A DNA stretch of 64,000 bases from Pantanalinema sp. (GCA_036704125.1 DATNQI010000076.1:27157-91156); one strand, 5' to 3'. Positions 10,148 to 46,164 are shown, numbered from the stretch's first letter. Numbers and translations: made by a program. Notes: generated by a model not told the origin, from the sequence alone.

Positions 10148-12757
10148 TCAGTAGGTCGCGCCGTAAACCCGGCCCGCGTTCGAGCCGGGCGGCAGGGCCC
10201 CGGTAAGCGCGCGGTAGAACACCTTGATGGTGCCGCCCGAGACGGCGCTCGTCGCACCCGCACCGCCGTCGCCGCCGGGAAAAATCGAGAACCCGCCGCT
10301 GTCGATGGCGGCAAAGGAGCCGTTTGCGCCGTTGGCGCCGCCGCGCGCGTCCATGGTGCCCTGCAGGGTCACCTGAGGGGCCTGCAGCACGATCGAACCG
10401 CCCGAGCCCCCCCCTCCGCCGCCGGAGCCTGGGGTGTTGTTGGCCCCGCCCCCGCCGCCCGCTGCCCCCACGACGATGAGCTTGGCCGTGTTCGCGACGC
10501 TCAGGGCGCTTCCCGCCTTGAGGACGATGGCCCCGCCGCCGGCTCCTCCGCCGGCACCGGCCGTGTACTCCCCGGCGCCGCCGAGCCTCGCGGCGTTCCC
10601 GCCCGCGCCGCCCGAGCCCAGGACCCAGCTCGCATCCGTCGAGACATCGGCCGAGGGCAGGTAGGATCCCGCCGGACCGCCCTTCCCGTCCTCGGCGATG
10701 GCCAGGGTCCCGGGCGCCCAGCCCAGCCCGCGCGTCGCAGCGCCGAAGACGCCGCCTCCCGTGCCACCGGCCCCGCCGCCGCCCCGGCCCGCGCTGCCGC
10801 CCGATCCGCCGCCGCCCGCGCCATAGCCCGCCGCGCCGGTGCCACCCCCGTTGTCGTCATAGCCGCCCAGGCCGCCACCGTAAGGGGCGGCCCCGCCGGC
10901 GCGCGTGGGGATGGCCAGGGGGCCCCAGCTCGGGTTGCCGTAGGCTTCGCCGCCCGCCGTCGTCGCATCGTTCCCTGCCGAGGCCGTCGCGACGGGGCCA
11001 TCGGCGCCCCCGCCGCCCGCGCCGCCGAAGTAGCCGCCGCGACCGCCCGCGCCCGAGACGCAGCCTCCGCCGCCGGCCGCCCCGTAGCCGAGGCCGCCGC
11101 TGGTGAACCCGCCGTTGCCCGAAAGGCCCGCGACGCCGCCGCGACCGTACTCGGCCGTGATGGAGCCGCCGGGGCCGCCGCCGTAACCGCGCCCCGCCCC
11201 GTCGATGGTGCCGTTCACGGTGATGGTGTTGGCGTAGAGACCGAGCCAGCCGTCCTTGGGGGAGCGGACCCGCTGATCGTACATGGAGGCGCCTTCCCCG
11301 ATGGCGTCCGCCCTTCCGAAGGGCTGCACGTAGGTCGTCGTCCCGTTCGCGATCGAAACCGTCTCGAAGTAGTGGTTGCCGAAGAACTGGGTCTTGTTGC
11401 TGCCTGCCGGGAAGTTGACCGAGTAGCCCGCGTCCGAGGCGTTGCGCACCCCGCTGGTCGTCGCCCCGTCCCAGGAAGCCCCCTCGGCCACCTGGACCCC
11501 GTCGCTGATGACGGTCGTCCCGTTCCCGGTCGCGAGCACCGGCGTCACGCTCACGTAGTAGGTCGCCCCCGCCCAGGCCCCCGCCAGGCTGAGGGCGTCC
11601 GTCCGGCAACTGGTGCCCAAGCCCACGGGCCGGTCGGCCATGACGTCGCCGGCGCCGGGGGTCGTGCCGACCCGCACCACGTAGCCCGACGCGTTGGGAT
11701 TGGCGCTCCAGTTGGCGTAGAGGTAGCCCGCGCCCGAGGTCACCGGGCTGTACTGGTAGGCGACGTCCACTGCCGCCGAGGTGGTGCCGTCGTTGACCTT
11801 GAAGGGCGAAACCGTGAAGGCGGGCCCCTGGTAGACGAGGCTGCCCACCTGGACGGTGACGGCCCCGGCACCGAGCCCGCGCATGGACACGTCGAGGCGG
11901 GTCGGCGAGGCGCTCGTGACCACGCCGGGCACCCCGTTGAACTTGACCACGTTGTTGGCGGGCGTGGGATCGAAGCCCACGCCGAGCAGGGTCACGCTCG
12001 CGCCCTCCATCAGGGCGGCGAGGGACGATTGGTCGGTGACCTTGGGGCCGCCCGTGATCCGGAAGCGTCCGGTGGCGCTCTCGTAGGCCACGTCGCCCAG
12101 AGGGTCGCGGTCCTGGGCGATGAGCGCGTCGACCAGAGGAAGGACGGCGGCGTACTCGGCGACCGAGCAGTTGGTCACGGGCGAGAAGACGTCCGGGGCG
12201 CCCGTCACCACGCGGCCGATCAGGCTCGCGGGGCTCACCTGCAAGGCGGGCGCGAGGGCGGCCTTGAGGCCCGCGATGATCGAAAGAGCCGTGCTCGATC
12301 GCCCGAGCATGATGCTCGACCCCGTGATGCTCTGCCACGTCCCGTCCGCGTGGGAGAGCACGGTGCGAAGGGCCGCGGTGTTGCTGCCCGCCTGGTTCCC
12401 GTTGAGCCCCTTGACCGCTTCGAGGTAGTAGGGCTGCTCTCCCGGCACGAAGCCCGGGATGCTCAGCGAGAAGGCGCCGGTCGTCGGGTCGGTGACGGCC
12501 GAGGCGATGGTGCGGTTCTGGGTCGGATCGATCAAGGAGACGGTGGCGGCGAGGGTCACGTCAGCGAGTGCCGCCTGCGTGGTGCGCCCGAGGGCGGCAG
12601 GCTCCACCCGGCCGCTGAGCGTCACGGCCTCGCGCGCCGCGGGCATTGGCAGCTGCGCGCTCGGCGTCGTGGCCGGACGGATGCAGCCGGCCAGGAGCGC
12701 CAGGACGATCGCGAGCGACAGCGCCAGGCGCCGCAGGGCATCAGTAGGTGGCCGCAT
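10148..12757 (-). CDS. large lipoprotein paralog B: CarbopepD_reg-like, IPT/TIG and FN3-like domains, then ~350-aa glycine-rich (PGRS-like) C-terminal region
   Basis: 869 aa with lipobox LLAGC. Domains are recognised by eye. The C-terminus is Gly/Ala tracts interspersed with short hydrophobic strands and ends …GGTIKVFYR…AGRVYGATY. It overlaps the upstream paralog stop by 17 nt. Confidence 0.7.
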   Translation of the reverse strand: MRPPTDALRRLALSLAIVLALLAGCIRPATTPSAQLPMPAAREAVTLSGRVEPAALGRTTQAALADVTLAATVSLIDPTQNRTIASAVTDPTTGAFSLSIPGFVPGEQPYYLEAVKGLNGNQAGSNTAALRTVLSHADGTWQSITGSSIMLGRSSTALSIIAGLKAALAPALQVSPASLIGRVVTGAPDVFSPVTNCSVAEYAAVLPLVDALIAQDRDPLGDVAYESATGRFRITGGPKVTDQSSLAALMEGASVTLLGVGFDPTPANNVVKFNGVPGVVTSASPTRLDVSMRGLGAGAVTVQVGSLVYQGPAFTVSPFKVNDGTTSAAVDVAYQYSPVTSGAGYLYANWSANPNASGYVVRVGTTPGAGDVMADRPVGLGTSCRTDALSLAGAWAGATYYVSVTPVLATGNGTTVISDGVQVAEGASWDGATTSGVRNASDAGYSVNFPAGSNKTQFFGNHYFETVSIANGTTTYVQPFGRADAIGEGASMYDQRVRSPKDGWLGLYANTITVNGTIDGAGRGYGGGPGGSITAEYGRGGVAGLSGNGGFTSGGLGYGAAGGGGCVSGAGGRGGYFGGAGGGGADGPVATASAGNDATTAGGEAYGNPSWGPLAIPTRAGGAAPYGGGLGGYDDNGGGTGAAGYGAGGGGSGGSAGRGGGGAGGTGGGVFGAATRGLGWAPGTLAIAEDGKGGPAGSYLPSADVSTDASWVLGSGGAGGNAARLGGAGEYTAGAGGGAGGGAIVLKAGSALSVANTAKLIVVGAAGGGGGANNTPGSGGGGGGSGGSIVLQAPQVTLQGTMDARGGANGANGSFAAIDSGGFSIFPGGDGGAGATSAVSGGTIKVFYRALTGALPPGSNAGRVYGATY

Positions 12758-15344
12758 AGACCCTCCCTGCCGTCGTCAGCGTCGGCATCGCCCCGATGAA
12801 GCTACGGTAGAAGACCTTGACGGTCCCGCCGGTGAGCGCGCTCGCCCCGCCGTTGCCGCCGTCACCGCCGGGCCCGCCCGCGACGGGATTGCCGGTTCCG
12901 CCTCCCGTGCCGCCCAGGCAGCTCACGACGCCCGAGAGGTCGATCGTCCCGGCATCCATGAGGATCGTCCCCCCCGATCCTCCTCCTCCGCCGCCGCCCG
13001 AGGGCGAGTTGTTGGCGGCACCACCTCCGCCGGCCGCCCCGACCGCGATCAAGCGCCCCGAGACGGTCAAGGTCCTGGCCTTGAGGATGATGGCCCCGCC
13101 ACCTGCCCCCCCGCCGCCGCCCGTCGTACGCTCGGTCGTCATCTGGACGCCCGGGTTGCCCCCGGCCCCGCCGGACCCCAGGACCCAGGAGCGATCCGTG
13201 GTGGTATCGGGCGAGGGCAAGTAGCGGCCGGCGGGCCCGCCCAGCCCGTCCTGCGCCTTCGCCAGCACCCCGGGCTCCCAGCCGAGCCCGCGCGTGGCGC
13301 CGAGCGAGTAGCCGCCGCCGGTGCCGCCGGCGCCGCCGCCGCCGGCGTAGGTCGTGTTGCAGCCGCCGACCCCTCCGCCACCGCCCGCCCCGTAACCGGA
13401 GCCGCCGCTCCCGGGCGAGTTGTCGACGCGGCCGCCGGATCCGCCGCCGTACGGCAGGGCCGCGACGGGAGGAAAGGTCGGCGAGCCGGTGATGCCGCCC
13501 TGGCCCGTCGCGTCGCTGCCGCTGCCGCCCACCACCGGCCCGACGGCCCCGTAGCCGCCGTTGGCCCCCGCGCCGGCGCCGCCGAAGTAGCCGCCGCGCC
13601 CGCCGTTGGAATCCCCGAGGCAGCCGCCTCCCTGGCCGCCACCGCCCGCCGCCCCGAAGCCCAGGCCGCCGAGGCCCGCGCCCTCGGTTCCCCCGTTGCC
13701 CGAGAGGCCTCCGATCCCGCCGTGGCCGAAGGTGGCCACGCTGTCCGAGGCCGTCAAGCCGGGTCCCCCGCCGTAGCCGCGCCCGGCCGCGTCGATGGCC
13801 CCGCTCACCGTGAGGGTGTTGGCGTAGAGACCGAGCCAGCCGTCCCTGGGGGTGCGGACCCGCACGTCGTTCATGGAGGCGGCCTCCGTGATGTTGTCCG
13901 CCTTGCCGAAGGGCTGCACGCTCACCGTGGCGTTCGAGGGGATCGAGACCGTCTCGAAGTAGTGGTTGCCATAGAACTGGGTCTTGTTGCTGCCCGCCGG
14001 GAAGTTGGCCGAGTAGCCCGCATCCGAGGCGTTGCGCACCCCGCTGGTCGTCGTCCCGTCCCAGGAGGCCGCCTCGGCCACCTGGACCCCGTCGCTGGTG
14101 ACGGCGGTCCCGTTGCCGGTCGCAAGCACCGGCGTCACGCTCACGTAGTAGGTCGTCCCCGCCCAGGCCCCGTCCAGGCTCAAGCCGGTCGCCTGGTAAT
14201 CCGTCACGGCGCCGACCGACACCTCGGCCTTCACGTCGGCGGCCCCCGGCGTCTTGCCGATCCGCAGGCGGTAATCCGTGGCGTTCGGGTTGGCGCTCCA
14301 GTTGGCGTAGAGATAGCCCGCCCCCGCCGTCACCGGGCTGTACTGGTACAGGTTGTCCACCCCGATCGAGCGGGTGCCGTCGTTGAGCGCGAAGGGCGAA
14401 ACCGTGTAGGGCGGCCCCTGATAGATGGTGCTTCCGACCTGCACCGTGACGGTCCCGGCGCCGAGCCCGCGCATGGAGACCGTGAGGCGCGTCGGGGTCG
14501 CGGCGGTGACGACGGCACTCGCCCCGTTGAACTTGACGGTGTTGTTGGCCGGGGTGGGATCGAAGCCGCTGCCCTCGAGGATGACGCTCGCACCCTCCAT
14601 CAGGCCGGTCAGGGGCGAGGTGGACGTGATCCCGAGCCCCGCGTTCAAGAGGAACCTGGCGTTCGCCGTGTCGTAGGCGATCGCCCCGAGGGGATCGAGG
14701 TCCCGCGCCAGGGCCGCGGCGACCACCTCGCGGGCGCCGTCGAACTCGGGCCCCGTGCAGTTGGGGATGGGCGAGAAGACGTCGGGCGAGCCGGGCGCCA
14801 GGCTCCCCAGAAGCGCGCTCAGGGCCGGGCGCTGGGGAGCGGGGAGAGCCTGCTTCAGGCTGACGATCGCGCACAGGGCGGTGGTCGAGAGGCCGAGGCG
14901 CACCGGCCCCGGCTGGGAGTTGGTCACCGAGCGCCACCCGTCGCCTTGCGCCGCGATCGCGGTGCGCAGGCGCGCCACGCGCTGCCCCACCCGGTTGGAG
15001 CCCAGGCGCTTGAAGGCCTCGAGGTAGTAGGTGGCGCTGCCCGGCTGGAAGCCGCCGTAGTAGAGGGCGAAGGCGCCGTCCGCATCGGTGGTCGCGGTCG
15101 CCACCGTGCGATTGGTCGCAGGGTCGATGAGCACGACCGTCGCGGCCTGGGCCACCTCCGCGGCCTGGGCCTGAACCTCGCGGCCGAAGGCATCGAGCTC
15201 CACGCGGCCCCGGATGACCGCGGCGGCGGCCTCGCTCGTCGCAGGCGCCGGGCTTCCCGCGTGCGGGAGGGGCGCCCCGAGGCAGCCCACCAGAAGAAAG
15301 AGACACAGCGCGAAAACCCACTGTCTGGAGCGTCGCATCCTCAC
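12741..15344 (-). CDS. large lipoprotein paralog A (same architecture as 10148..12757)
   Basis: 867 aa with lipobox LLVGC and the same domain order. The conserved C-terminus reads …GGTVKVFYR…AGRVYAATY. DNA segments are ≥90% identical to paralog B. Confidence 0.7.
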   Translation of the reverse strand: MRMRRSRQWVFALCLFLLVGCLGAPLPHAGSPAPATSEAAAAVIRGRVELDAFGREVQAQAAEVAQAATVVLIDPATNRTVATATTDADGAFALYYGGFQPGSATYYLEAFKRLGSNRVGQRVARLRTAIAAQGDGWRSVTNSQPGPVRLGLSTTALCAIVSLKQALPAPQRPALSALLGSLAPGSPDVFSPIPNCTGPEFDGAREVVAAALARDLDPLGAIAYDTANARFLLNAGLGITSTSPLTGLMEGASVILEGSGFDPTPANNTVKFNGASAVVTAATPTRLTVSMRGLGAGTVTVQVGSTIYQGPPYTVSPFALNDGTRSIGVDNLYQYSPVTAGAGYLYANWSANPNATDYRLRIGKTPGAADVKAEVSVGAVTDYQATGLSLDGAWAGTTYYVSVTPVLATGNGTAVTSDGVQVAEAASWDGTTTSGVRNASDAGYSANFPAGSNKTQFYGNHYFETVSIPSNATVSVQPFGKADNITEAASMNDVRVRTPRDGWLGLYANTLTVSGAIDAAGRGYGGGPGLTASDSVATFGHGGIGGLSGNGGTEGAGLGGLGFGAAGGGGQGGGCLGDSNGGRGGYFGGAGAGANGGYGAVGPVVGGSGSDATGQGGITGSPTFPPVAALPYGGGSGGRVDNSPGSGGSGYGAGGGGGVGGCNTTYAGGGGAGGTGGGYSLGATRGLGWEPGVLAKAQDGLGGPAGRYLPSPDTTTDRSWVLGSGGAGGNPGVQMTTERTTGGGGGAGGGAIILKARTLTVSGRLIAVGAAGGGGAANNSPSGGGGGGGSGGTILMDAGTIDLSGVVSCLGGTGGGTGNPVAGGPGGDGGNGGASALTGGTVKVFYRSFIGAMPTLTTAGRVYAATY

Positions 15345-28422: not shown

Positions 28423-31400
28423 TCAGTGCTCCAGGCCGGACGGGACGAGCGTCCCGCGCTTGAGCTGCCGGGTCTTCCAGAGGGTGAAGAGGACGGGGAT
28501 CACGATCAGGACGAGCACCGTGGAGGTGAAGAGCCCGCCGATCATGGGAGCCGTGATCGGCCTCATCAGGTCAGATCCGGTTCCCTGACTCCACATGATA
28601 GGCATCAGGCCGATGAAGTCCACTGCCACCGTCATCAGCTTCGGTCTCAGACGGAAAACAGCCCCCTCCATCGTCGCCGTTTCGATGTCGGCCGGGGTGA
28701 TGGCGCCCCCCAAAAGCATCCGGTCAAGGGCCTCGTTCAGGTACACGAGCATGACCACGCCCGTCTCGACGGCGACCCCCGCCAGCGCGATGTAGCCGAC
28801 CCAGACGGCGACGCTGAAGTTGTAGCCGAGCACCTTCTGGAGCACGAGCCCCCCGATCAGGGCGAAGGGGATGGAGAGCACGACCATCGCCGACGAGGCC
28901 AGCGACCGGAAGGTCAGGTACAGGAAGAACAGGATGACCGCGAGCACGATCGGCACCAGGACGCGCAGCCGCGCGGCCGCCCGGCTCTGGTTCTCGTACT
29001 GGCCGCTCCAGGAGAGATAGGTCCCCTTCGGCAGCTCGAGGTCGCTAGAAAGGCGCGCCTTCGCCTCATCGACGAAGCTGCCCATGTCCCGGCCTCGGAC
29101 GTTCAGGAACACGATCGAGCGCAGAAGACCGTTCTCGCTGTTGATCATCGGAGCACCCGTCGTCAAGCGCACGTCGGCGAGCTGGGAGAGGGGGATCTGG
29201 GCGCCCGTGGGCGTGGGCACCAGGATGCTTCCGAGGGACTCGGGGTCCCCCCTCAGCTCCCGGGCGTAGCGGACCCGCACGGGGAAGCGCTCGCGGCCCT
29301 CGACGGAGGTGGTGAGGTTCATCCCGCCGATGGCCGTCTCGATGACGTCCTGGACGTTCTCCACCATCAGGCCGTAGCGGGCGATCGCCTCCCGGTTCGG
29401 GGTGATGTCCACGAACCGGCCGCCGATGACCCGCTCGGCGAAGACGTCCTGGGCCCCCGGGATCCCCTTCAGGATGCCCTCGGCCTTGACCGCCAGGTGC
29501 TCCAGCTCGCGCAGGTCCGAGCCGTAGATCTTCAGGCCGAGATCCGTCCGGACGCCCGTGGCCAGCATGTTGATCCGGTTGATGATGGGCTGGGTCCAGC
29601 CGTTGCTGACGCCCGGGATCGAGAGCTTATGGTTCATCTCGGCGATCAGGTCGTCCTTGGGCTTGCGCGGGTCGGGCCACTCCGAGCGCGGCTTGAGGTT
29701 GATGATCGTCTCGATCATGCTGACCGGCGCCGGATCGGTGGATGTCTCGGCGCGTCCCACCTTGCCGAGCACCGACTCCACCTCGGGGAAGGCGCGCAGG
29801 ATCTTGTCCTGGACCTGCAGGATGCGCTTGGCCTCGGTGATGTTCACGTCGGGCAGGGTGGTCGGCATGAAGAGCAGGCTCCCCTCGTCGAGCGGGGGCA
29901 TGAACTCGTTTCCGATGCTCATGGCGAGCGGCACGCTCAAAACGACGCTCGCCACGGCCAGACCCACGGTCATCTTCTTGAAGCGAAGGGCCGTCGTGAG
30001 CACGGGCTTGTAGAGCCGGATGAAGAAGCGCGAGACGGGGTTCTCCTCCTCGGGCCGCACCCGGCCGCGCAAGAGGAAGCTCATGAGCACCGGGACGACG
30101 GTGATGGCGATGACGGCCGCCCCCGCGATCGCGAAGCTCTTGGTGAAGGCCAGGGGATGGAACATCTTCCCCTCCTGCCCCTCGAGCATGAAGACCGGCG
30201 TGAAGGAGAGCAGCACGATGAGCAGCGAGAAGAAGATGGGTCGCCCCACCTGCTTGGCCGAGACGATCACGGTCTCGAGGTAGTCCGGCTCCTCACCCGC
30301 CTCCCGCTGCTCGGCCAGGTGGCGGTACGCGTTCTCGACCATGACGATGGCGGCGTCCACCAGCACGCCCACGGCGATCGCGACCCCGCCCAGGCTCATG
30401 ATGTTGCTGGTGATGCCGAACTGGCGCATCAGGATGAAGCTCACCAGCACCGCGACGGGCACCGAGAGGACGATGATGAGCGCCGAGCGGATGTGGAAGA
30501 GGAAGGCCAGCACCACGAGGCTGACGATGACCGCCTCCTCGACCAGCGCCTCCTTGAGGGTGTCGACGGCGCGCTCGATGAGATCCGAGCGGTCGTAGGC
30601 CGCATGGACGCTCACGCCCGCGGGCAGGCCCTTCTCGAGCTCGACGAGCTTCGCCTTGACCCGGTCGATGACCGCCTTGGCGTTCTCGCCGTGGCGCATC
30701 ACGACGATGCCGCCGACGACCTCGCCATCGCCGTTCTTGTCGAGGACCCCGCGCCGCGTCTCGGCGCCAAGCTGGACGCTCCCCACGTTGGCGATCGTCA
30801 CCGGGATGCCGCCCGGAGCGGTCTTGACGACGATCTTCTCGAGGTCGGAAGCGCTCTGGATGTAGCCCCGGCCCCGGACCGAGTACTCGGCCGCGTTCTG
30901 CTCGACCAGGCCGCCGCCCACCTCGTTGTTGCTCATCCGGACGGCATCCGCCACTTCCTTCAGGCTGACGCCGTAGGTGAAGAGCTTGGCCGGATCGACC
31001 TCGATCTGGTACTGGCGGACGAAGCCCCCGATGGAGGCCACCTCGGCGACGCCCGGCACGCTCTGGAGCTGGAGGCGCAGGTACCAGTCCTGGATGGCGC
31101 GCAGGCGGCCGAGATCGAGGCCCTTGCCCTCGACGGTGTACCAGTAGACGTGGCCCACCCCGGTCCCGTCGGGACCGAGCGCCGGGGTCACCCCGGCGGG
31201 GAGGTTGCCCGACACCGAGGCCAGGCGCTCCAGGATGCGGGTCCGCGCGAAGTAGAGGTCCGTCTTGTCGTCGAAGATCACGTAGATCATCGAGAAGCCG
31301 AAAGCCGAGCTGGCCCTTACCGCCTTGACGTCGGGCAGCCCCTGGAGGCTCGCCGAGAGCGGGTAGGTGATCTGGTCCTCGATGACCTGCGGGCTGCGCC

Positions 31401-31563
31401 CCGGCCACTCGGTGAAGACGATGACCTGGTTCTCGGACAGGTCCGGGATCGCATCCAGCGGGGTCCGGGTGATGGACCAGGTGCCCCAGCCGATCAGGCC
31501 GACCAGCGCGATGATGACGATGAAGCGGTTGCGAACCGACCATTCAATGATGCGCTCGATCAT
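28423..31563 (-). CDS. cusA: CusA/CzcA-family heavy-metal efflux RND permease
   Basis: 1046 aa with the HME-RND signature and a 12-TM plus large periplasmic-loop architecture. Start overlaps the cusB stop (ATGA). Confidence 0.95.
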   Translation of the reverse strand: MIERIIEWSVRNRFIVIIALVGLIGWGTWSITRTPLDAIPDLSENQVIVFTEWPGRSPQVIEDQITYPLSASLQGLPDVKAVRASSAFGFSMIYVIFDDKTDLYFARTRILERLASVSGNLPAGVTPALGPDGTGVGHVYWYTVEGKGLDLGRLRAIQDWYLRLQLQSVPGVAEVASIGGFVRQYQIEVDPAKLFTYGVSLKEVADAVRMSNNEVGGGLVEQNAAEYSVRGRGYIQSASDLEKIVVKTAPGGIPVTIANVGSVQLGAETRRGVLDKNGDGEVVGGIVVMRHGENAKAVIDRVKAKLVELEKGLPAGVSVHAAYDRSDLIERAVDTLKEALVEEAVIVSLVVLAFLFHIRSALIIVLSVPVAVLVSFILMRQFGITSNIMSLGGVAIAVGVLVDAAIVMVENAYRHLAEQREAGEEPDYLETVIVSAKQVGRPIFFSLLIVLLSFTPVFMLEGQEGKMFHPLAFTKSFAIAGAAVIAITVVPVLMSFLLRGRVRPEEENPVSRFFIRLYKPVLTTALRFKKMTVGLAVASVVLSVPLAMSIGNEFMPPLDEGSLLFMPTTLPDVNITEAKRILQVQDKILRAFPEVESVLGKVGRAETSTDPAPVSMIETIINLKPRSEWPDPRKPKDDLIAEMNHKLSIPGVSNGWTQPIINRINMLATGVRTDLGLKIYGSDLRELEHLAVKAEGILKGIPGAQDVFAERVIGGRFVDITPNREAIARYGLMVENVQDVIETAIGGMNLTTSVEGRERFPVRVRYARELRGDPESLGSILVPTPTGAQIPLSQLADVRLTTGAPMINSENGLLRSIVFLNVRGRDMGSFVDEAKARLSSDLELPKGTYLSWSGQYENQSRAAARLRVLVPIVLAVILFFLYLTFRSLASSAMVVLSIPFALIGGLVLQKVLGYNFSVAVWVGYIALAGVAVETGVVMLVYLNEALDRMLLGGAITPADIETATMEGAVFRLRPKLMTVAVDFIGLMPIMWSQGTGSDLMRPITAPMIGGLFTSTVLVLIVIPVLFTLWKTRQLKRGTLVPSGLEH

Positions 31564-32882
31564 CGGTGGGCTCCCTGGTGCGCATCCGCAGCGCCCATTC
31601 CGGCCTGGATCTGGCTGTCCGCGTCGAGTAAGAAGCCGCCCGACGTCGCGACCTTCTCACCCTTCGAGAGGCCCGAGAGCACGGGGTAGTGGTCCCCCGC
31701 CTTCTGGCCGAGGGACACCTCGCGGGGCCTGAAGACCCCCGGGGCCGTCTCGACGTAGACGAGCTTGCGGCGGCCGGTGTCGATGACCGCGGAGGCTGCG
31801 ACCGCGAGCGGCTGGGCTCCGAGCGCGGGGGCCTTGAAGGTCGTCGCGACGAACATGTCGGGCTTGAGCCTGCCGTCCTGGTTGGCGAGATCCACCCGGA
31901 TCCTCACCGTCCGGGATTCCGGGTTGAGGAAGGGATAGATGAACGAGACCCGCCCCACGAAGGTCTTGCCGGGATGGGCGGGGGTGGTGATCTCGGCGCG
32001 CTGGCCGACCTTCACGTCCTTCATCTGGGCCTCGAACACGTCGGCCTCGGCCCAGACGCGCGAGAGATCGGCGATCTCGTAGAGGACGTCGCCGGTCTTC
32101 ACGTACTGGCCCGGCTGCACCAGCTTCTTGAGCACCACCCCGGACGTGTTCGCGTTGATGGCCAGGGCGAGGGTCGGGGACTGCGTCCGCTCCAGCTGCT
32201 TGATCTGCGCCGGGGTGATGCCCCAGAGCTTGAGGCGCTGGCGCGAGGCCTCGACCAGGCTCTTGGCCCCCTCGGCGAGGTCGGGATAGGCGCTGCCCTT
32301 CATCTCGCGGTAGGAGCGCAGGGCCACCAGGTACTCCTGCATGGCCGCGACCGCCTCGGGGCTGTAGAGGGTGCCGATGGGCTGGCCCTTCGAGACGCGA
32401 TCGCCGGTGGCATCGACGTACAGCCGCTCGATGCGGCCCTCGATCCACGCGGTGAGCTGCGAGAGGCGCGTCTCGTCGTAGGTGATCTTGCCGGGGGCCG
32501 ACACCGCGCTCGAAAGCGAGCGAGGAGCGACCGCCTCGGTCTTCACGTTCGCCAGCACCTGCTGCTCGGGCGAGAGCACCACCTCCTGGAGCCCCTCGGG
32601 CGCCGGCGCGGCGTGCTGCTGGTCATGAGCCTGGGGGGCGGGCGCGGCCTTCACGGCCACCAGGTCCATGCCGCAGATCGGGCAGGATCCCGGCTTGTCC
32701 GATTTCACCTGGGGGTGCATGGGGCAGGTGTAGGTCTCTTCGCCGTGCGCGTGATCCGCATGCACGCTCGCGGAGCGCGATTGGAGCCAGGTGTAGCCCA
32801 CCCCGGTGCCCGCGGCCAGGATGGCCGCCCCCAGGAGGGGGACCAGGATCCGGGTGGTCTTGTGTTGCCAGTCGAAGGTCAT
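31560..32882 (-). CDS. cusB: efflux RND periplasmic adaptor (CusB-like) with N-terminal heavy-metal-binding domain
   Basis: N-terminal YTCPMHPQV…CPICGM domain, then HlyD/MFP biotinyl-lipoyl and beta-barrel domains. Confidence 0.9.
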   Translation of the reverse strand: MTFDWQHKTTRILVPLLGAAILAAGTGVGYTWLQSRSASVHADHAHGEETYTCPMHPQVKSDKPGSCPICGMDLVAVKAAPAPQAHDQQHAAPAPEGLQEVVLSPEQQVLANVKTEAVAPRSLSSAVSAPGKITYDETRLSQLTAWIEGRIERLYVDATGDRVSKGQPIGTLYSPEAVAAMQEYLVALRSYREMKGSAYPDLAEGAKSLVEASRQRLKLWGITPAQIKQLERTQSPTLALAINANTSGVVLKKLVQPGQYVKTGDVLYEIADLSRVWAEADVFEAQMKDVKVGQRAEITTPAHPGKTFVGRVSFIYPFLNPESRTVRIRVDLANQDGRLKPDMFVATTFKAPALGAQPLAVAASAVIDTGRRKLVYVETAPGVFRPREVSLGQKAGDHYPVLSGLSKGEKVATSGGFLLDADSQIQAGMGAADAHQGAHR

Positions 32883-40918: not shown

Positions 40919-41281
40919 CCATGCTCTCCTTCACGAAAGAAAATCGTCCAGGGAACCCTGCTGGCGACCATCTAAGCGCAGCGCGAGCGATCCCATGAAG
41001 GCTGGAAGTGCTGAAGGATCGAGGGGTGAGCAATCAAGTGACCCGCGGAGGCGCGATCGCAAATGACGTAGATCCTACGGATTCTTCCACGCCCCGCTTC
41101 GTCTAGAATTTTCCCGCGGGACTTCGTGCTTTTTGACTTTGTTTCGCACAATCAATCGATCATCATCAGATCGTTGAGAAAATGATAATTTTTCATCAAA
41201 TCACGAAGCGCCGACCATCCCCCTGACGACAAGGGGATCCAGAGGGCCACTCGTCCCGGCCCGGTATCAGGAGCAGGTGGA

Positions 41282-42097
41282 ATGTTGTACCCAGGCACCC
41301 AGACACTCGAGCCCGTCCAGGAACCCGACCAGCTCATCGCCGAGGCGAAGGCCCAGATCAAGGCTTGCCGATCCTTCAAGTCCGGCAAGATCAACAAGTA
41401 CGCCCAGGTCGAGGGCGTCCGGGAGTACCCGAAGGGGCAGGCCCCCTTCGATCGCCAGGTCCACCACCACGACGACCGGGGCCGGGTGGTCTTCTTCGAG
41501 AAGTTCGTCCGCGAGTTCTCGAGGCCCTCGCTGCGGGTCTACCGCTACCGGGACGCGAGCCCGGAGATCGCGGACGCCATCTGGATCGATCGCTACGGCC
41601 GGATCGAGAACTACCACGTCTACCACTGCGACCCGGTCACGGGCCTGATGCTCTGGCGCGCGGAGTACGACATTCACGGCAACCTCTTCTACTCGATCCG
41701 CTCGGGGTACGACGCGCGATCGCAGCTGGTCGAGGAGTCGTGGTACGACCCGCAGAACCGGCTGCTCAAGCGCCACGGCTACACCTACGACGCCAAGGGG
41801 GAGCTTGCCTCCGAGCTGCACCACGACGCCCAGAACCGCCTGCGCGGCTTCAACGCCTTCTCCTACGACGCGCGGGGCAACCTGCTGGAGCGCCGGTGGC
41901 ACGACGGCCAGGGGACCTGCCGCAGCCGCTTCGTCTACACCATCGACAAGCAGGACCGGGTGGCCTCGCTCAAGCTGATCGGCCCCAGCGAGAAGCTCCA
42001 GGTCAAGCAGGACTTCACCTACGACGCGCAGAACAACGTGATCAAAGAGGTCTGGACCGACGAAAAGGGCGCCGTCGTCAAGGAGCTGCGCTTCTAG
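41282..42097 (+). CDS. hypothetical protein with YD-repeat-like motifs
   Basis: 271 aa with recurring Y(T)YDA(K/R/Q)GNL… motifs. An AT-rich promoter-like region precedes it (41100-41260). Confidence 0.5.
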   Translation: MLYPGTQTLEPVQEPDQLIAEAKAQIKACRSFKSGKINKYAQVEGVREYPKGQAPFDRQVHHHDDRGRVVFFEKFVREFSRPSLRVYRYRDASPEIADAIWIDRYGRIENYHVYHCDPVTGLMLWRAEYDIHGNLFYSIRSGYDARSQLVEESWYDPQNRLLKRHGYTYDAKGELASELHHDAQNRLRGFNAFSYDARGNLLERRWHDGQGTCRSRFVYTIDKQDRVASLKLIGPSEKLQVKQDFTYDAQNNVIKEVWTDEKGAVVKELRF

Positions 42098-42152
42098 GCA
42101 GGCCTGAACTCTCGTCAGAATCCGCACGAATCGACGAAAAGGAGCACGCGAT

Positions 42153-43418
42153 ATGGCCATCGACGGCGTCAACATCAACCCCCTGCAGAACCTCCCGCGC
42201 AACTCGGGCACCGGGCCGCTCACGGCCCCTGCCGAGGCACCAGCGACGGAAGCCCCCGGTGCTGCCCCCTCGGTGAGCGGCGACTCGAGCCAGTTCGGCA
42301 CCGTCGGCGCCGGATCCCAGCTCGGCCAGGCGGGTACGGTGGAGGGCCGCTTCTCCGAGGCGGTCGATCCCTTCTTCACCCCCGCCTACCACGAGGCCAA
42401 GGACATCACGCCCATCGTGGCGCCCGGGATCGAGGTCACCGCCCCCACCGATCCCCCCGCCGGCCCCAGCGCCGCCACGCCCACCCCGACCCCGACCGAG
42501 GTGCAGGCCCCGCCTACCACCAGGCCGCCCGAGACCGTCTCGATGCCGCCCGCCCCGCCCGCCCCGCCGCCCGAGCAGGTCATCGAGGTCGCGGGCTCGG
42601 GCATGGGCGCCGACAAGTCGTTCAAGATGTACCCGAGCGAGCTGGCTGCCGTGTACGCCATCCTCAAGCAGGGCGGCGTCATGTCCCTCGAGGAGATGCA
42701 GAAGCAGCTGAGCGAGAGCTACGGCATCGACACCAAGATCGAGAACGGCACCCTCATCAACACCGAGAACGGCCACGCCCTGATCGCCGACACCAACGGC
42801 AACGGCGCCCTGGACATGGGCGACATGAACTTCGAGGCGGCCCTGTCGGCGGCGGGCATCGACCCCAGCAGCATTCCGGGGCCCGGCGAGCACAAGAAGG
42901 TGGACGCTCTGGCCTACTGGTCCAACTACTGGGGCAATCAGCTCGTCAAGGAGATGGAGGGCAGCTCGGGAGGCCCCAGCGACACCCCCGAGGACAAGGG
43001 CCCCGCCAAGGCCGGCGGCGCCAAGACCCCGGTCGGCGGCCTGACCAAGGTCGGCGGGATCGGGGACGCCCAGCGCGACCTGAAGCTGATCGAGGTCAAG
43101 GGCGGCGACGACCTGTTCAAGATGTACGGCGTCGAGCTCTTCGCCATGTACGCCACCCTCAAGCAGGAGGGCAAGCCCGTCTCCCTCGATGAGCTCAAGG
43201 ACCTCCTGAAGAAGGAGGTGGGCATCGACTGCGACATCCAGCAGGTCAACGGCAAGGACACCCTGGTCAACAAGCTGACCGGCAACGCCCTGATCGCCGA
43301 CACCGACGGCAGCGGCAAGATCGACCTCAAGGACCTCAACTTCGAGGACACCCTGCGCGGGGCGGGCTACCACCCCGAGGACGTCCCCGCCAAGGCCCCC
43401 GAAAGCACCGCGAAGTAG
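42153..43418 (+). CDS. hypothetical protein: Pro-rich N-terminus plus two tandem ~110-aa repeats each carrying an EF-hand-like loop
   Basis: aaggag RBS. Repeats are DKSFKMYPSELAAVYAILKQ…DTNGNGALDMGD and DDLFKMYGVELFAMYATLKQ…DTDGSGKIDLKD (canonical 12-residue EF-hand loop). Confidence 0.6.
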   Translation: MAIDGVNINPLQNLPRNSGTGPLTAPAEAPATEAPGAAPSVSGDSSQFGTVGAGSQLGQAGTVEGRFSEAVDPFFTPAYHEAKDITPIVAPGIEVTAPTDPPAGPSAATPTPTPTEVQAPPTTRPPETVSMPPAPPAPPPEQVIEVAGSGMGADKSFKMYPSELAAVYAILKQGGVMSLEEMQKQLSESYGIDTKIENGTLINTENGHALIADTNGNGALDMGDMNFEAALSAAGIDPSSIPGPGEHKKVDALAYWSNYWGNQLVKEMEGSSGGPSDTPEDKGPAKAGGAKTPVGGLTKVGGIGDAQRDLKLIEVKGGDDLFKMYGVELFAMYATLKQEGKPVSLDELKDLLKKEVGIDCDIQQVNGKDTLVNKLTGNALIADTDGSGKIDLKDLNFEDTLRGAGYHPEDVPAKAPESTAK

Positions 43419-43427
43419 GACCCTACC

Positions 43428-43712
43428 ATGCTGAAGCTACTGACCCAAGACGAAGTGAAGGCGCGCATCAAGCGCCTCGGTGAGCTCGTGGAGCGCGAGT
43501 ACGCCCTCAAGGAGCGCCTGATCGGCCTCAAGCTGAGCGGCCCGCGCGACCACGTGCTCGAGGCCCGCAAGGAGCACGACGCCATCCTGGCCGAGATCGA
43601 CCGGCTGCGCCTGGAGGAGCAGCTGCCCGTGATGGCCGAGCTCTCGGACTTCAACAAGGCCGCCGAGCTCTTCCTCGGCGTCAACGCCCACCTCAAGCGG
43701 AAGCTGCAATGA
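43428..43712 (+). CDS. small (94-aa) charged, predicted coiled-coil protein translationally coupled to the radical SAM gene
   Basis: Its stop overlaps the radical SAM ATG (ATGA at 43709-43712). Composition is real-looking (K/E/L-rich). Confidence 0.5.
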   Translation: MLKLLTQDEVKARIKRLGELVEREYALKERLIGLKLSGPRDHVLEARKEHDAILAEIDRLRLEEQLPVMAELSDFNKAAELFLGVNAHLKRKLQ

Positions 43713-45583
43713 GCGATCCCGGCGCCCGGCACGAGGGGCGCGCCCCGCGCGTCCTGCTGATCTTCCCTCCCCAGTGGTCCCCCCAGAACCCGCACTACTC
43801 GCTGCGGACCCTGATGGGCCACCTGCGGGCCAACGGCGTCGAGGTCGCCGTGCGCGACCTCAACGTCGAGTACTACGACCAGATGCTCAGCCCGGAGACC
43901 CTCTCGATGGCGCTCTCCCGGCTGCGGCTGGACTACGAGTACCTGGGCACCCGCAGCACCCTGCGCATGCTGGGAGGGGACGACTGCATCGACGCGCGGC
44001 TCGACGCCCTGCGCGCCAAGGCCATCCGGGACTACGTGGACGAGAAGGGGCCGCTGCTGGAGCAGCTGCCCCGGGTCATCCTGGACGCCAAGGAGACCCT
44101 CAAGGACCCCCGGCGCTTCTACAACCCCGACATGCTGATCGAGGCCTTCCAGACCATCGACCAGGCCCTCGAGCTGATCTCCATGCCGTACTACCCGGCG
44201 CACCTGAGCTTCAACTACTTCGAGCAGCCGGACATCCGGCTGAACCTCGAGAGTCTGACGGCGATCGCCTCCGATGCCAAGCGCAACCTCTTCTACAACT
44301 TCTTCGAGCGCCAGCTTGAAGACCTGCTCTCGATCGAGGCCGACTACGTGGGCATCTCGATCAGCTCCTTCTCGCAGGTGGTGCCCGGGCTGACGCTCGC
44401 GCGCCTGCTCAAGCAGGCCGCCCCCGAGGGATGCCACATCGGGATCGGCGGCAACTTCTTCTCCCGGCTCAAGGACGTGCTCCTGGAGAAGCCCGCGTTC
44501 TTCGAGACCTTCGCCCACAGCCTGGCGCTCGGCGAGGGCGAGGACCAGCTGGTCCAGCTCTCCGAGATCCTGGCCGAGGGCAAGGACCTGGCCCTTGCTC
44601 CCAACCTCCTGTACCTGAGCGAGGACGGCACGGTCAAGGAGACCAAGAAGCAGGCCGTCCCCCGCATGGACAAGACCGGCATCCAGGACCTCGCCGGCCT
44701 GCCCCTCGACAAGTACCTGACCCCGGAGCTGGTGCTGACCATCCAGGCGAGCAAGGGATGCTACTGGGGCCAGTGCACCTTCTGCGACACCGACTTCGGC
44801 ATCCAGGTGGACACCAAGACCCTGGACAGGCTGGTCGCCGAGATCCGTCACCTGCGCGACACGTACGGGGTGCGGCACTTCCAGTTCGTCGACGAGGCCA
44901 TCCGGCCGGTCTACATGCGCCGCATGGCCCAGCGCTTCATCGACGAAGAGCTCGACATCGAGTGGTTCTGCAACGGGCGACTGGAGAAGGCCATCACGCC
45001 CGATCTGCTTCAGCTCTTGCACCGCTCGGGGCTGAGGATGGTGCTGTGGGGCTTCGAGTCGGGCTCGGCGCGGATCCTGGATCTGATCAAGAAGGGGATC
45101 GACCCGGAGAAGCGGTTCGACATCCTGAAGGCCTCGACCGAGGCGGGGGTCTGGAACTTCGCCTACATCTTCTTCGGCTTCCCCACCGAGACCCTGGAGG
45201 AGGCACGCAGCACCATCGACGCCATCACCTCCAACACCGACATCATCCACTCTTACGGCCGCTCGGTGTTCACCCTCGGCAAGCAGAGCCCGCTGTACCT
45301 GGACGCCGAGGAGCTCGGCATCGTGGACATCGTGGAGGACAGCGAGGAGCTGTCCACCAACCTTCATTACCGCATGAGCAAGGGCATGACCCCCGCCGAG
45401 CTGAAGGGTGTCCTCAAGGAGTGCACCCAGCGCAGCGGCGAGGCCTACCAGTACGCGCTGTGGTTCTTCCTGCGCTACCGGGAGAACATCCACCTCTACC
45501 TGTCCCGCTTCGGGCTGGACCACGTCCGCAACTACAAGCTGACGCGCTTCGCCATCCCGACGACCTGCGAGGAAGTGTTCTAG
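43709..45583 (+). CDS. B12-binding-domain radical SAM protein (class B-like) with atypical CX4CX2C cluster motif
   Basis: 624 aa. The N-terminus VLLIFPPQW is a cobalamin-binding Rossmann fold. Cluster motif CYWGQCTFCD, then a radical-SAM TIM-barrel-like region and a long C-terminal extension. Confidence 0.8.
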   Translation: MSDPGARHEGRAPRVLLIFPPQWSPQNPHYSLRTLMGHLRANGVEVAVRDLNVEYYDQMLSPETLSMALSRLRLDYEYLGTRSTLRMLGGDDCIDARLDALRAKAIRDYVDEKGPLLEQLPRVILDAKETLKDPRRFYNPDMLIEAFQTIDQALELISMPYYPAHLSFNYFEQPDIRLNLESLTAIASDAKRNLFYNFFERQLEDLLSIEADYVGISISSFSQVVPGLTLARLLKQAAPEGCHIGIGGNFFSRLKDVLLEKPAFFETFAHSLALGEGEDQLVQLSEILAEGKDLALAPNLLYLSEDGTVKETKKQAVPRMDKTGIQDLAGLPLDKYLTPELVLTIQASKGCYWGQCTFCDTDFGIQVDTKTLDRLVAEIRHLRDTYGVRHFQFVDEAIRPVYMRRMAQRFIDEELDIEWFCNGRLEKAITPDLLQLLHRSGLRMVLWGFESGSARILDLIKKGIDPEKRFDILKASTEAGVWNFAYIFFGFPTETLEEARSTIDAITSNTDIIHSYGRSVFTLGKQSPLYLDAEELGIVDIVEDSEELSTNLHYRMSKGMTPAELKGVLKECTQRSGEAYQYALWFFLRYRENIHLYLSRFGLDHVRNYKLTRFAIPTTCEEVF

Positions 45584-45587
45584 CGCG

Positions 45588-46043
45588 CTACTTGTGGAAC
45601 ACCGTGGGCAGCTCCACCGCCGGGACGTGGAACTGGCCGGCCGCCACCCCCGCGATGTGCTTGCAGGGGGTGTTCGGCGATCGCTCCATGCGATCCACCC
45701 TCTCCTTGTAGGTCCGCAGGTTGTCGCGGAAGGCGACCAGCTCCGCGATGCGCCGGTCGAGCTCGACAAGGCGCGCGTCGAGCAGGTGGCTCACGTGGTC
45801 GCACGGCGCCTCGCCCGCGCCCCATGCCATCACGATGTCCTTGATGTCGTGCAGGGAGAGGCCCAGCGCCTTGGCCCCCAGGATGAAGCGCATGCGCTCC
45901 GCGTCGGACTCGACGTAGAGGCGATAGCCCGACTCCGAGCGCTGCGGCTCGGATAGCAACCCCAGCGACTCGTAGTAGCGGATGGTCTTGGGGTTCACCC
46001 CGACCCGCTTGGCCAGCTCCCCGATGAACAAGCCCCCTTCCAT
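45588..46043 (-). CDS. cueR: MerR-family metal-responsive regulator (CueR-like)
   Basis: HTH GELAKRVGVNPKTIRYYESLGLL, a dimerisation helix and C-terminal Cys residues. It is divergent from copA, with a CueR box in between. Confidence 0.8.
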   Translation of the reverse strand: MEGGLFIGELAKRVGVNPKTIRYYESLGLLSEPQRSESGYRLYVESDAERMRFILGAKALGLSLHDIKDIVMAWGAGEAPCDHVSHLLDARLVELDRRIAELVAFRDNLRTYKERVDRMERSPNTPCKHIAGVAAGQFHVPAVELPTVFHK

Positions 46044-46091
46044 GCTTTTCCCTCCTCGGCCCCGGTCGCATAATGGACGGCGCGCTCCCCC

Positions 46092-46125
46092 TTGACCTTC
46101 CAGTCAACTGGAAAGAGTACCTTGG
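46092..46125 (+). promoter_or_regulatory. CueR-type promoter/operator of copA
   Basis: TTGACCTTCCAGTcaACTGGAAagagTACCTT. The -35 is TTGACC. The dyad CTTCCAGT/ACTGGAAG lies in a long spacer. Confidence 0.6.
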
Positions 46126-46164
46126 AGTCGTTGCCCCCGCAAGCCGCCGTGAAAGGAATCCGCC

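Follow-up and report, generated by a model that had tools for sequence, protein, structure and literature searches.

A conserved gene module around an unnamed subfamily of predicted cobalamin-type radical SAM enzymes in Sericytochromatia and other phyla

Analysis of a 64,000-nt stretch of DNA, referred to as a whole as the window, from a genome labelled Pantanalinema sp. (GCA_036704125.1 DATNQI010000076.1:27157-91156) revealed a cluster of four genes, labelled g1 to g4, which very probably form one functional system and of which g4 encodes a radical S-adenosylmethionine (SAM) enzyme. Comparison of sequences across genomes establishes that this module is conserved and has been repeatedly rearranged without being separated, and that its universal core consists of the radical SAM enzyme and a small helical protein, with the g2 protein as a near-universal third member and the YD-repeat protein encoded by g1 as a lineage-specific fourth. 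The system probably modifies a neighbouring protein of the calcium-binding type. It is of the radical SAM maturase type; the enzyme class is known, while the partner families and the subfamily are new. An initial annotation of the window had proposed four co-oriented genes with short gaps or overlaps, and these plus-strand open reading frames (ORFs) were confirmed together with their boundaries:

41282-42097, plus strand: g1, short YD/RHS-repeat protein of 271 aa
42153-43418, plus strand: g2, acidic protein of 421 aa with a disordered N-terminus and two domains of ~105 aa
43428-43712, plus strand: g3, charged protein of 94 aa, probably a helical hairpin
43709-45583, plus strand: g4, radical SAM protein of 624 aa, predicted class B (cobalamin type), unnamed subfamily

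The spacings are 55 nt between g1 and g2, 9 nt between g2 and g3 and -4 nt between g3 and g4, the last being an ATGA overlap of the g3 stop with the start of the radical SAM gene (caATGAgc). A Shine-Dalgarno-like AAAGGAG is present upstream of g2. The third-position GC of g1 to g4 (0.94-0.96) is the same as that of the remaining genes of the window, which has a GC content of 68-70%, and the four can therefore be regarded as real, native coding sequences. The NCBI names for the cluster proteins are 'radical SAM protein' and three times 'hypothetical protein' (HEY9899961-63, metagenome-assembled genome (MAG) labelled Pantanalinema sp.).

Regarding conservation, relatives of the radical SAM enzyme are encoded in at least 581 of 600 pattern-matched stretches from a species set with one genome per GTDB species, and at least 810 protein clusters are homologous to it. 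According to their labels, the hosts include Sericytochromatia, Melainabacteria/Gastranaerophilales/Vampirovibrio, Vulcanimicrobiota/Eremiobacterota/Xenobia, Armatimonadota, Chloroflexota, Bacillota, Myxococcota and 'Deltaproteobacteria'. Gut Gastranaerophilales MAGs have kept the cassette throughout, as a single copy, and no relative of the enzyme was detected in viral contigs. Neighbouring genes were counted in 81 loci, namely the best 80 of the 581 related stretches (designated by L and a number) and the window; ORFs were called in these best 80 loci and then subjected to iterative profile searches with g1, the g2 domain and g3.

A protein of the g3 type is encoded in 34 of the 81 loci, always directly upstream of the radical SAM gene and on the same strand, and in 45 other loci an ORF for a helical protein of ~110 aa adjoins the radical SAM gene on the same strand, directly downstream in 41 of the 43 loci measured and, in L039, upstream and overlapping the radical SAM start in the manner of g3. 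The two types never co-occur in one locus, and one or the other is present on the strand of the radical SAM gene in 79 of the 81 loci, with a median gap of ~10 nt. Genes for proteins with the g2 domain adjoin the radical SAM gene in ~70 of the 81 loci and are co-directional and upstream in Sericytochromatia, Eremiobacterota and Myxococcota, divergent and upstream in Gastranaerophilales and occasionally downstream, and orthologues of the g1 YD protein were detected in 25 loci, upstream in the closest relatives of the window and downstream elsewhere. Gene order and strand thus vary by lineage and phylum. All-against-all clustering of the ORFs of these loci recovered no other neighbour family in more than 16 loci, the remaining families being housekeeping genes within one order, and no metabolic, protease or transporter genes are conserved near the radical SAM gene; between the window and its closest locus, L001, in which the enzyme is 70% identical, the four cluster genes are shared and nothing else. 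The suggestion of a conserved but unannotated unit is thus borne out, the radical SAM homologues keeping their neighbours across phyla. Of these partners, the small helical protein is the most widespread, and not the YD or the EF-loop protein.

The genes g2 and g3 are joined in a single ORF in L011, L012, L013, L018 and L077, and such fusions were found independently among representative proteins (P0126, P0134 and P0155). In the window, g2 ends in TAG and the ATG of g3 follows 9 nt on in the reading frame of g2 (TAG and three codons); this arrangement of a g2 TAG followed after 2-3 codons by an in-frame g3 ATG (43416-43430 in the window) is also present in four relatives, L001 (7732-7743), L002 (7705-7716), L003 (7732-7743) and L020 (1350-1361). 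The in-frame TAG, together with the true fusions elsewhere, suggests at the sequence level a history of fusion and fission or possible stop-codon read-through. Regarding copy number, L033 (12-9806; Cyanobacteria bacterium OH_PDB_230) contains five tandem, diverged radical SAM paralogues (42-55% identical), all of which carry CYWxKCxFC, together with one g2-type gene and one small helical ORF, while L031 and L039 each have two radical SAM paralogues and L046 has two g2 genes.

The g4 protein matches the radical SAM family PF04055 (E=3.5e-16, 60.3 bits, cut-off 29.5), and two of its features are of particular relevance:

44759-44785, plus strand: CYWGQCTFC, the CX4CX2C [4Fe-4S]-cluster motif, aa 351-359, with C351, C356 and C359
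43859-44329, plus strand: helical insertion of ~150 aa splitting the N-terminal Rossmann (B12-type) domain, aa 51-207, from AlphaFold2 secondary structure

The motif is present as originally read, and G350-C351-Y352-W353, C356 and F358-C359-D360, including all three cysteines, are invariant across 29 homologues with 39-71% identity to the window protein, the family-wide form being CYWxxCxFC with the spacing CX4CX2C in place of CX3CX2C. This spacing is no novelty in itself, as had been implied, since OxsB also carries CX4CX2C (PMC9204698).

Regarding cobalamin, the Pfam B12-binding model remains below threshold in the window protein (14.4 bits versus 32.1), but PF02310 is recorded in several homologues, and the AlphaFold2 model of the enzyme is confident (mean predicted local distance difference test score, pLDDT, 89.3). 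The top Foldseek matches to this model are TsrM, MgmA, OxsB, AprD4, CysS and TokK, of which TsrM, OxsB, TokK, CysS and MgmA are cobalamin-dependent radical SAM enzymes that match over both the Rossmann and the radical SAM domain, AprD4 being a related enzyme. Judged by fold and by homologues with PF02310, g4 is a class-B (cobalamin-type) radical SAM enzyme; the initial assignment as a cobalamin-binding protein is upheld to this extent, with cobalamin binding itself predicted. The long C-terminal extension noted at first is an ordinary domain of ~110 aa, and the unusual feature lies at the other end, in the helical insertion, whose region is conserved throughout the family alignment and which might, speculatively, offer a docking surface in the modelled structure. 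No SPASM or DUF4070 match was obtained with Pfam, and the only near-invariant C-terminal cysteines are C572 and C576, the window protein having a serine at 576.

Curated NCBIfam cut-offs were used for subfamily membership, and no curated NCBIfam family reaches its cut-off with the g4 protein. The best match is TIGR03975 (123.4 bits, cut-off 281.85; E=9.7e-36, aa 189-541), followed by PhpK (97.5 bits, cut-off 600), ApyD, HpnJ (70.7 bits, cut-off 578), TIGR04014 for MgmA/Mmp10 (60 bits, cut-off 360; E=1.3e-16) and BchE (44.5 bits, cut-off 481), all far below their cut-offs, as are HpnR (34.8 bits, cut-off 650) and BzaD (31 bits, cut-off 450); the match to TIGR04428 (TsrM) is insignificant (E=0.007). 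By these profile comparisons the enzyme is outside every named subfamily tested (TIGR03975, PhpK, HpnJ/R, BchE, MgmA, BzaD and TsrM), and the low scores of BchE, HpnJ, HpnR, PhpK and BzaD agree with the earlier view that it is not a member of a housekeeping subfamily. None of g1 to g4 was matched by the PADLOC defence models, and full-text searches of the literature found no description of the radical SAM family.

Several known systems resemble parts of the module. The TIGR03975 family (rSAM_ocin_1) comprises B12-dependent radical SAM C-methyltransferases for maturation of ribosomally synthesized and post-translationally modified peptides (RiPPs), and PoyB and PoyC of proteusin pathways are presumably enzymes of this type; they have the same class-B architecture, and peptide or protein substrates are plausible for g4 too, but in the cluster there is no adjacent NHLP/Nif11 precursor, protease or transporter, and the partners are structured proteins. 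The best solved sequence relative is OxsB of oxetanocin A synthesis (PDB 5ul2), with 14% identity in a structural alignment and a template modelling (TM) score of ~0.47; OxsB likewise has extra N-terminal helical material and a C-terminal domain and needs a partner, OxsA, whereas no HD-domain, OxsA-like phosphohydrolase is among the conserved neighbours of the cluster, which are non-enzymatic. MgmA and Mmp10 are B12-dependent radical SAM enzymes that methylate Gln or Arg of methyl-coenzyme M reductase and provide a precedent for a full-size, folded substrate encoded nearby. Both by sequence and by fold, MgmA (9ccb) is one of the top matches to g4, although it has ~450 aa and lacks the helical insertion, no methyl-coenzyme M reductase is encoded at the cluster, and the taxa differ. 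The best Foldseek match is the tryptophan 2-C-methyltransferase TsrM (PDB 6wte; E=7e-17, TM 0.53-0.61, both domains), with 13-15% identity. In TsrM the cluster motif is the canonical CX3CX2C, and SAM is not cleaved reductively (PMC9204698).

For the pairing of g3 with g4, the precedents are the small accessory proteins of radical SAM maturases. Pairs of such enzymes and accessories are PqqE/PqqD, MftC/MftB and PlpX/PlpY, in which the partners of the PqqD type are winged-helix domains known as RiPP recognition elements (RREs) and the enzymes are of SPASM/twitch types. As in PqqE/PqqD-type pairs, a protein of ~90 aa is encoded beside the radical SAM maturase and co-translated with it, but g3 is all-helical by its sequence pattern and g4 is of the B12 type without a SPASM match.

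The g3 protein was described as highly charged, with a stop codon overlapping g4, and both points hold, K/R/D/E making up 37% of its residues. It has no match to any Pfam (PqqD included), NCBIfam or PADLOC model, and comparison with the PDB gave insignificant similarities to helical hairpins only, none of them usable; the sequence pattern and these weak matches point to a helical or coiled-coil protein. It is conserved solely at structural positions (L, a loop G and heptad hydrophobics), with a mean identity of 25%, and the tails past the conserved body of ~75 aa vary in length and sequence, look like an extended amphipathic helix and have no cleavage motif. An hhalign comparison of the ~110-aa ORF with the g3 profile gave a probability of 64% (E=6.6e-5), and no candidate target residue is common to the two types. 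A WXG100-like or carrier-protein-like nature of g3 was considered and dropped, since Pfam gave no hit and neither a Ser nor a WxG is conserved.

The g2 protein has a Pro/Ala/Thr-rich N-terminal region (63% P/A/T/G/S in residues 1-140) followed by two tandem repeats, as first described, the two copies being 47% identical over 106 aa (E=5e-27):

42573-42878, plus strand: first copy of the g2 domain, aa 141-242, weakly winged-helix-like
42789-42824, plus strand: EF-type loop DTNGNGALDMGD of the first copy, aa 213-224
43074-43388, plus strand: second copy of the g2 domain, aa 308-412
43299-43334, plus strand: EF-type loop DTDGSGKIDLKD of the second copy, aa 383-394

Both loops fit the canonical 12-residue Ca2+ loop pattern, and the PROSITE EF-hand loop pattern PS00018 is matched by 75 of 111 domain copies of the g2 family. 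The loop consensus DxNGNGx[LI][ED]xx[ED] is the most conserved feature of the family, and among 110 domain copies D1 and G4 are present in 100%, N3 in 94%, N5 in 93% and an acidic residue at position 12 in 98%, with G/A/N at position 6, [LI] at position 8 and [ED] at position 9. The loop may thus bind Ca2+, as its sequence suggests, and weak profile matches to EF-hand proteins in the PDB were obtained (9k6m, E=7e-4). The repeats had been described as ending in canonical EF-hand loops; the loops are there, but the AlphaFold2 model of the first copy (37 family sequences, pLDDT 83.5) gives the order strand-strand-helix-helix-strand-strand-strand, loop, helix, so that the unit is strand-loop-helix and not helix-loop-helix. 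As modelled, the g2 unit is a new domain that is weakly winged-helix-like and carries an EF-type loop behind its last strand; it is not a helix-loop-helix EF-hand. Compared with EF-hand proteins, the 12-residue loop is alike, while the strand before the loop and the single loop per domain differ.

A search with the g2-domain profile of a word-indexed database of 5.8 billion proteins gave only two matches, and the family size was taken instead from 1.84 billion representative proteins that were scanned exhaustively with HMMER; of the 118 hits, 108 truly belong to the family, with lengths of 92-584 aa (median 322 aa). The domain was found only in g2-like proteins, usually once per protein, twice in P0124, as in the window, and three times in P0123. 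Outside the domain, the flanking sequences differ between lineages. An aromatic motif follows the domain in the window clade (AYWSNYW, 42912-42932, g2 aa 254-260), a C-terminal motif FFQAYxxA / FFLRAYQYAA is present in Myxococcota and related loci (L010, L022, L023 and L024), and in Vulcanimicrobiota (L016 6015-7391 and L017 6072-7436) extremely Gly/Met-rich flanks with GGMGMGM and PMGGMGG repeats replace the Pro/Ala-rich linker of the window protein.

The YD-like nature of the 271-aa g1 protein was corroborated by scores above the cut-offs of PF05593 (RHS_repeat; 30.9 bits versus 22) and TIGR01643 (YD_repeat_2x; 29.6 bits versus 15.8). No domain besides the repeats and no signal peptide were found, nor any match among PDB sequences, and the distant YD-repeat relatives of g1 have no radical SAM context and sit in unrelated ones. 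An identity as an Rhs polymorphic toxin, which would call for a large shell, a secretion signal or domain and a C-terminal toxin, was rejected, since the protein has only 271 aa and no domain other than the repeats. By its distribution across the loci g1 is an accessory component of a subset of lineages. In a sub-group of loci with a YD protein but no g2 nearby (L009 9900-11090, L019 9916-10887 and L081 12017-13324), the YD protein has a long disordered N-terminal extension, in which a motif [SA][RK]FAAL[KM]KTAxxF occurs twice in L081 and once in L009.

The explanation proposed here is that of a self-contained, vertically conserved module that would be built round the cobalamin-type (class B) radical SAM enzyme. 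The g3 protein, whose gene appears translationally coupled to that of the enzyme, would bind it, most likely as an adaptor or subunit, and g2, a protein of a disordered linker and one to three domain copies, would be its dedicated client; g3 would bring g2 to the enzyme, the two being fused in some genomes, and g1 could be a lineage-specific fourth component that serves as a further binding partner or a further client. By B12-dependent radical chemistry, the enzyme would most likely methylate an unactivated carbon of the client. Class-B radical SAM enzymes methylate by default, OxsB and BchE being exceptions.

An adaptor or subunit role of g3, rather than that of a substrate, is suggested because the gene of the small protein is in every case co-transcribed with that of the enzyme, often with translational coupling, because only structural positions are conserved, with no target residue common to both types, and because tethering to the C-terminus of g2 is tolerated. 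Regarding g2, a role as client or substrate is suggested because the family seems confined to the radical SAM context and is joined to g3 in several lineages, because the nearest profile relatives of the enzyme modify peptides and MgmA modifies a whole protein, and because genes for metabolism, proteases or export, which would indicate a small-molecule or secreted-peptide product, are not conserved. The gene content of L033, where five enzymes accompany one g2 and one small ORF, would agree with a client that several enzymes have in common. Taken as a whole, the model of g3 as adaptor, g2 as client or substrate and B12-dependent protein modification is held tentatively, at somewhat less than an even chance.

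A number of observations weigh against this model. The modification of any cluster neighbour by the enzyme is something that we infer, the matches to methyltransferase families all fall far short of the cut-offs, and OxsB, one of the closest solved sequence relatives, works on a nucleotide without being a methyltransferase. L009, L019 and L081 contain g3 and a YD protein but no g2 within 8-10 kb, and g2 is therefore not universally adjacent to the radical SAM gene. With respect to Ca2+ binding, the Pfam models EF-hand_1/5/6/7 score 12.7-17 bits on g2 against cut-offs of 25-30, the loop is entered from a strand and not a helix in the AlphaFold2 model, and there is one unpaired loop per domain. 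The profile alignment gives only moderate support for homology between the small proteins of the upstream (g3) and the downstream (~110 aa) type.

Among the alternatives, the one that survives best, though it appears rather unlikely, is that the enzyme has a small-molecule substrate, for example a nucleotide, a lipid or a cofactor, with g3 as an obligatory accessory subunit like OxsA and g2 as a metal-responsive regulator or scaffold. OxsB, the best solved sequence relative (E=9.7e-15), shares the CX4CX2C spacing, many class-B radical SAM enzymes use small or carrier-bound substrates, TokK, CysS and AprD4 being among the fold matches, and the g2-less loci L009, L019 and L081 show that the enzyme can occur with no g2 beside it; yet no biosynthetic, transport or HD-domain genes are conserved beside the radical SAM gene in the 81 loci, its sole conserved neighbours encode non-enzymatic proteins, and its best profile similarity is to peptide-modifying enzymes.

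Less probable again, and in our view unlikely, is that g3 itself is the substrate, a protein-sized precursor, with g2 as a partner or effector of the modified form. This would agree with the presence of the small protein in more loci than any other neighbour (79 of 81) and with its constant co-transcription, with variable C-terminal tails after the ~75-aa body that loosely recall a leader/core layout, and with the five radical SAM paralogues and single small ORF of L033, which fit multi-site tailoring; it is at odds with the lack of a conserved target residue common to the two small-protein types, with tails that continue an amphipathic helix and carry no cleavage motif, and with the tolerated N-terminal fusion of g3 to g2.

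The initial annotation had placed the cluster among RiPP or cofactor-modification pathways, and a classical RiPP natural-product cluster with a secreted, cleaved peptide must be considered very improbable. The best NCBIfam match is indeed a RiPP maturation C-methyltransferase and a small ORF is coupled to the radical SAM gene, but TIGR03975 reaches 123 bits against a cut-off of 282, and no leader/core pattern, NHLP/Nif11-type precursor, protease, transporter or RRE was found, so that the RiPP framing has no positive evidence. With gaps of 55, 9 and -4 nt, a hidden precursor gene could not be accommodated, no further small ORF is conserved, and the single-copy retention throughout gut Gastranaerophilales MAGs is the pattern of a core function and not of sporadic secondary metabolism. 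A chance juxtaposition of four unrelated genes, for which nothing speaks beyond the missing annotation, is refuted for practical purposes by an adjacency that recurs, with altered gene order and with fusions, in at least seven phyla, and by a g2 family that has only 108 representatives in 1.84 billion proteins yet lies beside the radical SAM gene in ~70 of the 81 loci.

Regarding the surroundings of the cluster, g1 is separated from a divergent lysyl-oxidase-like gene on the minus strand by an intergenic region of 363 nt, within which one feature stands out:

41100-41260, no strand assigned: AT-rich tract, candidate promoter/operator region

This tract had been described as promoter-like; its AT-richness is clear (GC 38% at 41100-41199 versus a background of ~68%), but a consensus scan found no sigma-70 site in it. 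An inverted repeat CGATC-N7-GATCG at 41157-41173 in the tract is a possible operator, although it is short and may be due to chance. The lysyl-oxidase-like gene (PF01186; 40106-40918, minus strand) encodes a putative lipoprotein and is not kept beside the cluster elsewhere; the domain is uncommon among bacteria. On the other side, a convergent MerR gene ends 4 nt from the radical SAM stop, and metal-resistance genes at 45588-51255 comprise the MerR/ZntR-like regulator, a P-type ATPase with a heavy-metal domain and a second P-type ATPase. A link to copper, suggested by the MerR and Cu-ATPase genes next door, was rejected as the flanks are not conserved, and from the lack of conserved synteny the surrounding metal-resistance genes are judged unrelated to the cluster.

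Further upstream, ORFs at 28423-31563 and 31560-32882 resemble, by look only, an efflux pair of the resistance-nodulation-division (RND) type, and the part of the window with the highest GC content (up to 77%) contains two tandem ORFs of ~870 aa (10148-15344, minus strand), one of which has a single IPT/TIG domain with no further Pfam match in either; long ORFs are open on both strands there. The label Pantanalinema, a filamentous oxygenic cyanobacterium, looks doubtful, considering that the closest cluster loci all come from Sericytochromatia MAGs and that the window has a GC content of 68-70%, and the same doubt applies to the label 'Stenomitos sp.' of L020.

The module may represent a new post-translational modification system, in which a B12-dependent radical SAM enzyme and a helical adaptor put a carbon-based modification, for example C-methylation, on a metal-binding disordered scaffold; this is possible but doubtful at present. 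Class-B radical SAM enzymes perform some of the hardest known C-H functionalizations, and to our knowledge very few of them act on whole proteins. The enzyme represents a large unnamed subfamily that is found in Gastranaerophilales MAGs from human and animal guts and in Sericytochromatia and Eremiobacterota from soil, and the partner families of g2 and g3 have no Pfam or NCBIfam model. As only three or four genes are involved and there is no other conserved partner, the function is directly testable, and once it is known, several families now called 'hypothetical' could be annotated in lineages whose biology has hardly been studied by experiment. If the proposed function is true, this post-translational modification system would be a core feature of non-photosynthetic cyanobacterial relatives, namely Sericytochromatia and gut Melainabacteria, and of several other little-cultured phyla.

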